Shown in pieces: positions 60,447-63,866 of a stretch of 64,000 bases of DNA; position 1 is the stretch's first letter, and each line of letters opens with the position of its first letter. Origin of the DNA: a virus. The notes beneath the pieces were generated by a model. It did no database searches, had not been told where the DNA came from, and saw nothing but the letters and a program-made list of their open reading frames with translations. Both the position numbers and the translations under genes were made by a program. The stretch covers positions 1-64,000 of the IMG/VR virus record IMGVR_UViG_3300045996_002640; one strand, 5' to 3'.

Positions 60447-62069
60447 TTAGAACCCTCCGCCTTGTGACTTGGTCGGGCTGCCTGCATGGGCGCCCGAAGT
60501 TTGCTCTGCTGGGTTGGCGAGCCCTTGCCTCGCGAGCCAGAGCGACGCGAGATGGTCGCCCATGTGGGTGCGCGAGCTGTAGCCCATGCACTCGTCGCCC
60601 AGCTGCTTCATCACCTGAGCGGGCTCGCCCTCGCTCGGGCACGGCCACTCCCAGAGCCCCTGCATGAGCTCGAAGAACACGCGCTCCACGCCGTTCTGGT
60701 GATCGCTCTTGGAGCCGTGGGTCGTGTAGAAATAGACGACCGGAATCCGCTTGTCGCTCGCCTTGAGGTGGTCGGCCACGAAGCGCTGCGCGGCGTTCGA
60801 CTCGACGAAGACCTTGGAGTCGTAGCGCAAGGCCTCCTCCTTGATTCGGCGCACGAGCTCGGGCCCGTTCCAGCGTCCGCTCTGGAGGTTCACGATCCGG
60901 CGCTGCTGGTTCTCCTGGACCTCGACCGTGCAGATTGAGCTGAGGTCGCTCTTATCGCCGCCGAGCCCGCCAACGTCCACGCCCGTGTAGTGGCGCAGGC
61001 CGTTCGGCTCGAGCTTGCGTCCGAGCTCGAGCCCGCGTCCCTGCTCGTAAGCCTCCAAGATCCAAGCGCGCTCGCAGCGCGAGGCCTCGTCCGCGAACGG
61101 GTCGCAGAGGTACATGCGGGCCCAGACCGCCGGGAGGAACTCGTTCTTCAGCGCCTCGATCGCCGCCTTGCTCCCGTACCTCGAGTGGCCGGGCCAGAGG
61201 ACGGACAGGACTTTCTTCGTAGGGGCCGCCGGCGAGCGCAGGCGCCAGAGCTCGGGGTGCTTCGGCACCTGAACGATCAGGTCCCCGTACGCCTCCTTGA
61301 TCTGGTCGACGCTCAGGCCCTCGACGACGATCTGGCCGTTCACGTCCATGGTGAGCGTCGGCCAGACTCGGGCGTAGCGATAGGTCAGGTCGTCCGGGTT
61401 CCAGGGCGTGTTGGTGATCGCGATCCGCTGCGGCCCTTGGTCAACGCGCGTGACGAAGTCGTTCTGGAACTTCCGCGCGAGCTCGTCGCGCTGCTCGAGC
61501 GTGGTGGTGTTCTCCTCGTTCAGAACATCGTCCGCGTAGAGGTGCGTGAGCCGGGCGCCCAAGACGCGCGTGCCGAGACCGAACGCCCTGAGGCTCGGGT
61601 CCTTGGCGACGCGCCTGCGCTCGACCTCGAGCACCGTGTCAGACCACTTCGCGTTCGGGTCGGGATGCTTCCGGAGCTTCGGGAAGACGAGCCGCAGTGA
61701 AAGGCCCTCCTCGACGTAGCTCTTGAAGATCTTCACCGGCATCGAGGCCTGCGCCTCGCTCGCGCTCACGATACCGACACGGGCTTGTGGGTCCCGACCG
61801 AGCTGGTGCGTGAGGTGCGACGAAAGCAGGAACGTCTTCGAGGCGCCCGTCGGCATCCTGATCACGCTCCGGCGATTGTCGTCCATGAACCTGAGGACCA
61901 GGTGCTGGTGCGGGACGAGCCGAACGGGATCGCCGCTCTCGGTGTTCATGGCGAACTCGGCCATGACCGCAGGGTCTTCTCGGGCCTCGCCCGCGTAGGT
62001 GGCGACGGCCGTTAGCAACTTCGCTTGCTCCTCAGGCGTCAACGCCAGGAGCGGGTTGGGAGCGCTCAC
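60447..62069 (-). CDS. terL: terminase large subunit
   Basis: PHQ, MPTGASKT (Walker A), LYADD (Walker B), TNTPW and TGVDVG (RNase H nuclease) motifs; start 62069 or 62105. Confidence 0.93.
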   Translation of the reverse strand: MSAPNPLLALTPEEQAKLLTAVATYAGEAREDPAVMAEFAMNTESGDPVRLVPHQHLVLRFMDDNRRSVIRMPTGASKTFLLSSHLTHQLGRDPQARVGIVSASEAQASMPVKIFKSYVEEGLSLRLVFPKLRKHPDPNAKWSDTVLEVERRRVAKDPSLRAFGLGTRVLGARLTHLYADDVLNEENTTTLEQRDELARKFQNDFVTRVDQGPQRIAITNTPWNPDDLTYRYARVWPTLTMDVNGQIVVEGLSVDQIKEAYGDLIVQVPKHPELWRLRSPAAPTKKVLSVLWPGHSRYGSKAAIEALKNEFLPAVWARMYLCDPFADEASRCERAWILEAYEQGRGLELGRKLEPNGLRHYTGVDVGGLGGDKSDLSSICTVEVQENQQRRIVNLQSGRWNGPELVRRIKEEALRYDSKVFVESNAAQRFVADHLKASDKRIPVVYFYTTHGSKSDHQNGVERVFFELMQGLWEWPCPSEGEPAQVMKQLGDECMGYSSRTHMGDHLASLWLARQGLANPAEQTSGAHAGSPTKSQGGGF

Positions 62070-62630
62070 TCTCGGAATAGAAGCAGAGCGGGTGTCAGCG
62101 CACAAGCCCGGCGAGTGAATTCCAGAATTGACCGGAACGCCGCGCGAGGCGACGCGAGCTCGAGCTCACTTCCGAAATGGGCGCCCGTCGCACCGATGCT
62201 GCGCGCGCTCCGAGCTCACTTCCGGAATGCTCCGCTTACTTCGCGGGAGTCTCGGAAGCATTCGATCACTTCCGAAAGTCGCTCCGAAGTATCGGCAGTG
62301 GCGAGCAGGTTCCGGCGACTTTCGGAATTGGCGAACGGCGCTCGTGACCTCACGCAAAAACGGAGGCACTTCCGGAATGCCCTCCAGTTTTTCGCAGCGG
62401 TACCGTGCTCGCCATCGGCTTTCAGAATTCGGGCCCGAGGCGCGCGGGTCGGGCCCGAGCCCGGCTCACTTCCGAAAGCTCCGCTTACTTCGAGCCACTC
62501 CGAGCGCAGGTTCAGCGACTTTCGGAATCGGTCGGTTTGCTGCGCGGAGTGCCGAGCAGGTTCCGCGACTTTCGGAATTGGCGAGTACTCGTCGCCGCGC
62601 CTGGTGATGGCGAGGGCAATTCCGAAATGA
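62067..62630. repeat. 12 pseudo-palindromic ~14-bp sites at exact 50-bp periodicity
   Basis: 8-bp cores resembling TT(C/T)CG(A/G)AA start at 62070, 62120, 62170, 62220, 62270, 62320, 62370, 62420, 62470, 62520, 62570 and 62620; nine are exact and three have one mismatch. Confidence 0.92.
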
Positions 62631-62724
62631 GGTCGGCCCCCGGCGAGCGGCGCTAATAGGGCGGGCTCATTCGGGGGCCGGTGCTGGGCAAAAGTCGAGT
62701 TGCCCACTGCGATGTGTCTTTCCG

Positions 62725-62988
62725 TTATTCGAGCTTCGGCTTCGTCAGGTGTAGCCAGACCTCGACCTGATTCAGAAGTCGGTCGAGTCTTGCGTGCTCG
62801 GCTTCGAGGAACGAGCGCATTCTATCTTTCGAGACTGGTGAGCATGCGATGAGCAACCCGCCTGTTGGCGTTACGGAAACCTGGGTGGTTCCGATGCGGG
62901 CGTGCTGGTTCATGCCGGTCTCTTTTGCTCGGTCTCGGAGGTCGAGGGCGGCGAGGATCTGGACGTCCTCTTCCGAGAAGTTGGGCAT
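62725..62988 (-). CDS. small hypothetical protein
   Basis: GGAGG RBS; 87 aa. Confidence 0.65.
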   Translation of the reverse strand: MPNFSEEDVQILAALDLRDRAKETGMNQHARIGTTQVSVTPTGGLLIACSPVSKDRMRSFLEAEHARLDRLLNQVEVWLHLTKPKLE

Positions 62989-62991
62989 CTT

Positions 62992-63411
62992 TCAGCGCCT
63001 CCGCTTCGGGCGCTTCGCGCGTTTCGTTTTCACCTTGGTTTTCTTCCGCGCCGGCCCGAGCACTTTGGCTTTTCGTTTTGCGGCCAGCGTTTTGCGGCGC
63101 GAGACCGGGACGAGGGGGTTGACGAGAATCGGCTCCTGGGCGAGCTGCCAGAGCCGGTCGATCTTCGCATTCAGAGAAGCGGCCGCTTCTCGCGCCATCT
63201 GACGCGCTCGCTCCTTGGCTTCCGAAAGTAGCTCGTGAGCATCGCGGCCCATCAAGTGAGAGCCGGTCACTTTCCGAATGCCCTCGCCGATCACGCGCCG
63301 AGGCTGGACGTACGCGCGATTCGGAAAGACGCCCTGCTCGAACTCGACCATGATGATCCCGCGGGTCAATGCGTACTTGGTCGAGTAGCCGATGAAGAAG
63401 TGCGTGCTCAT
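62992..63411 (-). CDS. hypothetical protein with basic tail
   Basis: TKYALTRGI motif common in phage proteins; ATGA overlap. Confidence 0.75.
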   Translation of the reverse strand: MSTHFFIGYSTKYALTRGIIMVEFEQGVFPNRAYVQPRRVIGEGIRKVTGSHLMGRDAHELLSEAKERARQMAREAAASLNAKIDRLWQLAQEPILVNPLVPVSRRKTLAAKRKAKVLGPARKKTKVKTKRAKRPKRRR

Positions 63412-63866
63412 GGCTCGGCTTTCGGAAGCTCGGGCGCCGGCGCGAGGCGCTGAGCCTCGAGGATCGGGAGGTTCGCTTCCGTCGGCACGTAGATCGTGTC
63501 GTTCTTGCCGCTCTCGAGCGTCTGAATCCAGAGGTACCGGAGGTAGGCGTCGTTGCCCTTGAGGCTCTCGCCGATGATCTGGTTCGCCTGAGCGACGCCG
63601 CGAGCCCGCACGACCTCGGCCTCGGCGAGCTTGGACGCGCTGTCGAGCTTCGCCTGAGCCTCGAGCACCGAAACCCGGCGAGTACTCTCGGCCTCGGCGA
63701 GCGCCGCTTCACCCGAGGAGCGGGCTGCGTAGATCCGGTAGTGCTGGCAGCCGGTGAAGGCGCCGACGACCAGCAGGCAAAAGATGACGAGCGCGCCGAG
63801 CAGCGTGAGGCCTGAGGGGCCGTCGCCGTTCGATTGGTTGGAGTCGGGTCGGGGGATGGTTTTCAT
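63408..63866 (-). CDS. membrane protein, stomatin/prohibitin (SPFH)-related
   Basis: TM helix, then AEAEVVRARGVAQANQIIGESL..YLRYLWIQ..IYVPTEANLPILEA. Confidence 0.75.
   Translation of the reverse strand: MKTIPRPDSNQSNGDGPSGLTLLGALVIFCLLVVGAFTGCQHYRIYAARSSGEAALAEAESTRRVSVLEAQAKLDSASKLAEAEVVRARGVAQANQIIGESLKGNDAYLRYLWIQTLESGKNDTIYVPTEANLPILEAQRLAPAPELPKAEP

Follow-up and report, generated by a model that had tools for sequence, protein, structure and literature searches.

Arrays of protein-binding sites mark plasmid and virus DNA for segregation, replication, packaging or silencing, and the known ones repeat whole units at spacings of one to four helical turns. In tailed phages, the terminase recognition region is kept upstream of the gene for the large terminase subunit (TerL), often inside the gene for the small subunit (TerS). 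The element considered here lies upstream of TerL in a phage contig, IMG/VR record IMGVR_UViG_3300045996_002640, which is 93,801 bp long with 65.7% GC. The window that was analysed is the first 64 kb of this contig (64,000 nucleotides); coordinates above 64,000 refer to the contig beyond it. Array 1 consists of twelve pseudo-palindromic sites in exact 50-bp steps directly upstream of TerL, and a homologous sister, array 2, lies 8.2 kb away, outside the window.

Several described systems share part of this arrangement. In the F-plasmid centromere sopC, bound by SopB, a 43-bp unit containing a 16-bp inverted repeat occurs 12 times in direct orientation (PMC3177203). The present locus likewise offers twelve regular inverted-repeat sites, which here would be read by a dimer and nucleate a large nucleoprotein complex; unlike sopC, whose whole units are nearly identical, it has kept only a 14-bp site and the spacing, and it has a 50-bp period, a second array, a continuation into open reading frames (ORFs) and, among the proteins scanned, no helix-turn-helix (HTH) SopB or ParB and no ParA. 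Short repeats near TerL are also found in P1 pac, with its hexamer clusters in pacA, in SPP1 pacL/pacR and in the R sites of lambda cosB (TerS review, PMC9611059), and as in terminase recognition regions some of the sites lie inside a small gene whose product has a coiled-coil core. The untranslated repeat regions and the injection stop signal of phage T5 contain host DnaA boxes and lie in the terminal repeat (10.1101/866236). Like these, the arrays described here are large non-coding regions of a virulent phage, combine direct and inverted repeats, occur as related copies kilobases apart and conserve a spacer length (52 bp in T5); unlike them, they have no DnaA boxes, and their motif is no common host word. 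Two site clusters separated by kilobases, one a plain array and the other dyad-paired and A/T-rich, are likewise a feature of SPP1 oriL/oriR, P4 ori/crr, P1 incC/incA and Epstein-Barr virus (EBV) oriP FR/DS. The present locus differs from these in that no initiator gene was found beside the arrays and in that its sites have mixed orientation at 50 bp, as against direct iterons at ~22 bp (30 bp in EBV FR). The arrays resemble known binding-site arrays, yet they do not fit sopC or parS, iteron origins or the known pac sites. For the long period, the unconstrained spacer sequence and the way the lattice runs on in phase through ORFs, we know of no described counterpart.

The 50-bp array upstream of TerL

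Array 1 (62070–62633) contains twelve strong 14-bp pseudo-palindromes with the consensus CA(C/A)TTCCG(A/G)AA(G/T)T(C/G), their cores starting at 62070+50n up to 62620. The region from 62070 to 62724 is regarded as non-coding because it lacks a codon-position GC signal. TTYCNRAA cores follow one another from 62120 to 62620 in exact 50-bp steps, and the first site, at 62070, is a weaker TCTCGGAA that abuts the TerL start codon (GTG 62069). The twelve oriented sites were used to build a 14-bp position weight matrix (PWM), against which they score between 15.6 and 24.7 bits, and 11/11 intervals are exactly 50 bp, which bears out the first-pass annotation in its description of a series without drift. 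Its statement that the cores occur in both orientations also holds; the order (- - + + + - + - + - - +) has no pattern. The genome has 24 exact copies of TTYCGRAA, whereas a first-order Markov model predicts 5.6 +/- 2.3; nine of these copies are within array 1, and those at 63220 and 63420 are in phase with it, as had been noted from the sequence alone. In a genome scan with the matrix, a check proposed at that earlier stage, strong sites proved to be nearly confined to arrays 1 and 2, with a single site of >=12 bits (43793) outside both arrays and the extension described below. The lattice of array 1 is far beyond chance.

The DNA between the cores has a different character. The array 1 spacers share a mean ungapped identity of 0.35, compared with 0.32 for random pairs from the genome, so the spacers are indeed largely dissimilar, except for patches of homology at an offset of 250 bp. 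These patches reflect the composition of the array, which is made of 2 units and two homologous 5-unit (250-bp) blocks, 62149–62398 and 62399–62648, whose homology is itself patchy. Between the two blocks the lattice offset of the word GCTCCGCTTACTTCG changes from 9 to 8 and that of GAGCAGGTTCC from 33 to 34, while the core-to-core distance stays at 50. These shifts amount to two 1-bp indels, each compensated inside the same 42-bp spacer, and this compensation is direct evidence for selection on the 50-bp spacing. Orientation, judged by the better half-site, has switched at 2/5 homologous positions of the duplicated blocks, as would be expected if a symmetric dimer reads the site.

A decaying tandem duplication without function, its cores left by chance or residual similarity, is one rival reading, and the first-pass annotation had named a simply decayed 50-bp duplication as the outcome that would overturn its own interpretation. 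The part concerning duplication stands, given the two 250-bp blocks, and array 2 is a recognisable decayed tandem repeat (spacer identity 0.52); distant relatives lack arrays, and the segment at 62.1–68.7 kb looks like a lineage-specific insertion. Array 1, however, is not simply decayed: its spacers are randomised while its cores retain 15.6–24.7 bits, all 11 intervals are exact and the indels are compensated. Neutral decay is very improbable because it would erode cores and phase together.

An RNA-level element, either a guide-RNA array or a protein-sponge RNA made from the minus strand, is extremely improbable. CRISPR-like repeats are about 23 nt or more, keep one orientation and have cas genes nearby. 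The cores here are 8–14 bp in flipping orientation, no cas-like genes neighbour them, and a search of the spacers against the phage's own genome and ~1 Mb of relatives' loci, also proposed earlier, returned chance matches of 13–17 nt only. The guide-RNA array that had been considered less likely is consequently rejected. Although the genome is transcribed in one direction, with the arrays on the transcribed strand, and their predicted folding is stronger than that of shuffled sequences (z-scores -4.1 and -7.4), any sequence with inverted copies of one motif will give such low z-scores; no relevant Rfam family was found, and exact periodicity of the DNA is not something that an RNA would require.

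The lattice continues in phase from 62670 to 63427, through an 87-aa and a 139-aa ORF. Weak lattice points occur at 62720, 62770, 62870, 62970, 63070 and 63170, and moderate ones at 63220 (14.5 bits), 63271 (9.2), 63320 (10.7) and 63420 (11.9). From 62670 to 63470, 10/17 lattice points score >=0 bits, compared with 1.7% of background positions (binomial P=3e-14), and 4/17 score >=9 bits (P=6e-10); the array phase ranks 1 of 50, and 0/5000 random lattices reach its sum. The near-matches listed in the first-pass annotation at 62770, 62871, 62971, 63170, 63271 and 63320 are real. A 50-bp step is not divisible by 3, and the cores within ORFs accordingly fall in three different reading frames. No continuation was found inside TerL or past 63420, so the lattice spans exactly the interval bounded by the starts of the 139-aa gene and of TerL.

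Midway through array 1, the 62370 core forms the centre of a 44-bp palindrome with flanking A5 and T5 runs (62345–62405). It gives a terminator-like match on the minus strand (-21 kcal/mol, with a z-score of only -1.4) and, on modest evidence, looks like a bidirectional terminator-like hairpin.

Neither array had a blastn match in 50,697 phage records, and a literature search on the core words returned primers and similar items only. When IMG/VR was scanned for three cores spaced by 50 bp, the sole match was an unrelated 50-bp tandem repeat (L004:3406-3560, IMGVR_UViG_3300031760_006007); this plain repeat, in DNA of 48% GC, contains TTTCGGAA by chance.

Array 2 and the possible functions of the lattice

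Array 2 (70784–71204; L001:10784-11204) has nine 49-bp units at 70784–71177, with spacings of 49, 50 and then six of 49. Each unit combines a core with an inverted copy 32 bp beyond it and with a 5-bp A/T tract in constant phase. Mean spacer identity is 0.52 and the units can still be aligned with each other; unit homology with array 1 covers 26 nt at 92% and 129 nt at 66%. The array contains the genome's lowest-GC windows of 200 bp and 400 bp (51.5% and 55.5%). It takes up the space between the genes of a D12-class methyltransferase (71260–72393) and a RusA-like Holliday-junction resolvase (70266–70772; phrog_244, E=5e-19); the resolvase gene lies directly downstream, its start codon 14 nt from the array end. 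A perfect CGCGAATTCGCG palindrome is found near 71190, in array 2.

Both arrays are very probably DNA-level binding lattices for a symmetric, dimeric, sequence-specific putative DNA-binding protein. This reading rests on the orientation-insensitive pseudo-palindromes, each made of half-sites (C/G)A(C/A)TT(C/T)C, on spacers of free sequence and fixed length, on the absence of a periodic coding signal and on the homologous sister array. The lattice for a dimeric protein suggested in the first-pass annotation is thereby supported; for the packaging-initiation, origin or centromere roles that it attached to the lattice, scans of the phage proteins revealed no TerS, Rep or canonical ParB/ParA. Selection on the 50-bp centre-to-centre distance implies that the bound dimers would be joined in one higher-order nucleoprotein complex rather than acting one by one, and a distance held over >=550 bp and detectable over 1.35 kb suggests that this complex is large and has a long structural repeat.

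The geometry of such a complex can be sketched by arithmetic at 10.5 bp per turn, at which 50 bp corresponds to 4.76 turns and 49 bp to 4.67 turns. Successive sites of array 1 would be rotated by about -86 degrees, four sites (200 bp) making ~19 turns, and in array 2 the rotation would be -120 degrees, three units (147 bp) making 14 turns. Sites would thus spiral around the DNA, with neighbours not on one face and the same face reached again after 4 units in array 1 and 3 units in array 2. In a speculative and rather improbable extension, the protein would polymerise on the 50-bp and 49-bp sites as on a sequence-encoded ruler and form a left-handed superhelix of three turns on each array, one turn taking up about 4 sites (200 bp) of array 1 or 3 units (147 bp) of array 2; the superhelix would pair the two arrays, loop out the 8-kb accessory segment and act as a switch that senses genome copy number and licenses resolvase and terminase only when enough replicated DNA is present. 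If true, this would be an undescribed kind of phage chromatin switch.

Among the functions that the complex could have, a cis-acting platform for DNA maturation and packaging is tentatively preferred. The complex on array 1 would serve terminase recognition over the stretch from the gene of the small basic coiled-coil protein to the TerL start, with the 139-aa protein acting as the recognition subunit; array 2 would head the gene of the resolvase, the other enzyme that makes replicated DNA packageable, and the same protein could bridge both homologous arrays. Packaging is ranked first because the lattice runs from a TerS-sized coiled-coil gene to TerL and has sites within that gene, because there is no other TerS candidate and because the sister array heads a resolvase gene.

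Several observations weigh against packaging. The pac and cos regions of P1, SPP1, P22 and lambda are unique, no longer than 300 bp and spaced by about one or two helical turns. Here, unlike in these known regions, the lattice covers 560–1350 bp at 50 bp, a sister array stands 8 kb away and no TerS family member was recognised; with a homologous second array, there is no single site per genome of the kind that pac and cos represent. No array-binding protein was identified among the proteins scanned, and fold and profile searches with the 139-aa protein returned coiled coils only, with no recognisable DNA-binding fold. The 87-aa ORF and 650 bp of non-coding DNA lie between the 139-aa gene and TerL. 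Two of the in-ORF cores encode VFPN and LSEA, residues conserved in the 139-aa protein family, and may be kept partly by selection at the protein level. Relatives with TerL identity <=36% have RusA 2–3 kb upstream of TerL, tight gene packing and no arrays.

The placement of the arrays suits transcriptional control as well, for both fill whole intergenic gaps and come within 0–14 nt of the TerL and RusA start codons. A phage regulator that coats them as operator or roadblock lattices would hold back transcription of TerL and the resolvase until late, and release could come by titration as genome copies, with ~30 sites each, build up. The terminator-like palindrome inside array 1 agrees with this idea, as do the in-phase sites at the 5' end of a gene for a small basic protein, a pattern seen in autoregulated DNA-binding proteins. 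On the other hand, neither a sigma-70 consensus promoter nor one of the phage's own TTGCAA-N17-TAAGGT type was found in or beside either array, the z-score of the hairpin is only -1.4, and titration or a roadblock has no need of exact 50-bp spacing. Known operators need 2–4 sites. Such a late-gene gate is somewhat unlikely, although a serious competitor.

A replication origin or centromere, in which iteron-like or sopC-like sites in two clusters cooperate, is unlikely. The twelve regularly spaced inverted-repeat sites recall F sopC, the same motif recurs in two clusters 8 kb apart, and array 2, whose units each carry a 5-bp A/T tract in phase, has the lowest GC content of any window in the genome; even so, that window still has 51–56% GC. 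A centromere is further disfavoured by the lack of ParA, ParM and TubZ among the proteins scanned (the contig being 83% complete) and by the lack of an HTH or a CTP-binding GERR motif in the only ParB-like protein, P0032. As to an origin, no Rep or initiator family was recognised among the array neighbours, there are no DnaA boxes in the region from 60 to 80 kb, and the replication genes are 8–30 kb distant from the arrays. Iterons are normally direct repeats at ~22 bp, whereas the sites here have mixed orientation and a period of 50 or 49 bp.

The 8 kb between the arrays hold ~14 small ORFs of unknown function, and TerL distantly resembles the T7 'DNA maturase B' type. Both points would be compatible with arrays that mark the boundaries of a direct terminal repeat of ~8 kb carrying small early genes, in the manner of T5 and T7. 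Arrays of short repeats stand next to the T7 terminal repeat. In T5, conserved untranslated repeat regions with a conserved 52-bp spacer lie in and at the edge of the terminal repeat (10.1101/866236). This is quite improbable: the segment includes RusA and a methyltransferase, atypical as pre-early genes, the 12 promoter cassettes at 3.8–13.5 kb are a better match for an early or host-takeover module, and the contig is an 83% complete fragment without end repeats whose first base falls within a gene.

The putative reader protein and the neighbouring genes

The protein that reads the arrays is probably encoded by the phage. The 12-mer AMTTCCGRAAKT occurs at control level in five Myxococcota metagenome-assembled genomes (MAGs), and since it is not enriched there, an abundant host motif is unlikely, and a phage protein is the simplest reader. 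Scans of the genome proteins against Pfam and PHROG recognised no member of the TerS family and no other small-terminase candidate, and the T7 gp18 family was not found; the small ORFs between the arrays matched no Pfam or PHROG family, even at E=5.

By position, the best candidate for an array-binding or small-terminase-like protein is the 139-aa protein (62992–63411, minus strand), whose gene carries the four moderate in-phase sites between 63220 and 63420. It has a conserved N-terminal domain, and its AlphaFold2 (AF2) model shows a single long confident helix (residues 55–92) followed by a very basic C-terminal tail. Look-alikes in the Atlas are phage hypothetical proteins, with no family or fold assigned. 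Only two relatives were found, one of 165 aa with 48% identity and one of 89 aa with 45%. P0036, a close variant of the 165-aa protein in the same 90%-identity cluster, shares a 95.7-kb contig with P0002, a TerL with 84% identity; the 139-aa protein thus appears to evolve much faster than TerL, as specificity subunits do.

TerL itself (60447–62069, minus strand; phrog_38, E=6e-41) has 540 aa from GTG 62069, a start supported by P0002, which begins at the same residue. It is the next gene downstream of array 1, so the position upstream of terminase given in the first-pass annotation is correct, and its distant matches include T7-type 'DNA maturase B' proteins. Between the 139-aa gene and array 1 lies the 87-aa ORF (62725–62988, minus strand), overlain by weak lattice points; it has a GC content at third codon positions (GC3) of 0.72, a weak coding signal and no homologues anywhere searched, and it may not be a real gene. 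On the other side of the 139-aa gene is a predicted membrane protein of 152 aa (63408–63866, minus strand; phrog_11227), whose 3' end contains the 63420 core.

The ParB/Srx-type protein P0032 (72356–72970, minus strand; L001:12356-12970) is encoded just upstream of the D12-class methyltransferase. As a canonical ParB it was rejected: besides lacking an HTH and a GERR motif, it leaves Pfam ParB_N unmatched and has a Zn-ribbon-like tail with a C-terminal CxxC. Its DGEHR sequence is an instance of the DGxHR motif typical of methyltransferase-associated ParB/Srx domains.

A 279-aa protein (window 59648–60487, minus strand) overlaps the 3' end of TerL and has a Cys/His-rich C-terminal domain of Zn-finger type. 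This domain is syntenic directly downstream of TerL in at least 10 distant relatives (among them L084, L032, L031 and L022), and the protein may be a conserved partner of the TerL family, for example a nuclease or a recognition subunit.

Relatives and genome setting

The distant relatives that were compared, about 1 Mb of loci in all, reach a best TerL identity of 36% among metagenome contigs and 34% among genome contigs. A PWM scan of these loci found no clusters of the motif, and k-mer autocorrelation, gap analysis and repeat finding found no comparable arrays upstream of their TerL genes. A search anchored on the methyltransferase returned non-syntenic phages only. Across the TerL family the gene directly upstream of TerL is hypervariable, being ParB-like in three loci (L047, L053, L054) and a serine recombinase in one. 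The 212-aa gene at 68724–69362 (minus strand) has its homologue immediately in front of TerL in L033, L034 and L036, and for this reason the ~6.5 kb at 62.1–68.7 kb, array 1 included, look like a lineage-specific addition. In one distant relative, five 21-bp repeats of TTTGACGGCGGCA type were seen in the gap before TerL at L077:9637-9741 (= L076:9454-9560), between a 166-aa gene and a small Zn-ribbon ORF; they have another motif and another period.

Distant TerL relatives are present in Myxococcota MAGs, and the family, of roughly 90–110 kb, is widespread but uncultured and probably infects Myxococcota, the host of the present phage probably being a soil myxobacterium. To our knowledge, no small terminase or packaging signal is known in this phage family. 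The reader protein would provide a new DNA-organising module, possibly the packaging recognition system of the group, and together with its array it would offer a natural tool, an orthogonal and precisely spaced binding array. One soil sequencing run contained 7% of the sampled words, as scattered identical 151-bp pieces and noise only; the run is stored as contigs, which give neither read depth nor end positions.

The IMG/VR record is classed as linear, with a CheckV completeness estimate of 83%, which leaves ~19 kb of the phage missing. Position 1 of the contig interrupts a gene (window 1–252, minus strand), an ORF without a stop that runs off the edge, and no end repeats or overlap were found between the contig ends (1 and 93801). 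Almost all genes are on the minus strand, and the GC skew is monotonic and uninformative because of this one-strand arrangement. In the order of transcription, the upstream part encodes a DnaB-like helicase, a MoxR/VWA pair, DNA polymerase, a UvsX/RecA-like protein, SbcD and SbcC. These are followed by the protein with the ParB-like N-domain, the D12-class methyltransferase, array 2 and the RusA-like resolvase, and then by a second methyltransferase, the ~14 small ORFs, array 1 and TerL, after which 13 kb of small ORFs lead to the portal gene.

Two further kinds of repeat were seen in the window. At 3823–13551, at least 11 copies of a ~78-bp module form promoter cassettes; on the minus strand each reads TTGCAA, a 17-nt palindromic spacer, TAAGGT or TAAGAG and then CCAAGGCGGCC, and exact TTGCAA-N17-TAAGGT promoters are confined to this interval within the genome. 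Coding tandem repeats occur in large genes of the structural region, with five copies of 66 bp at 17341–17679 and 2.6 copies of 96 bp at 27258–27504.

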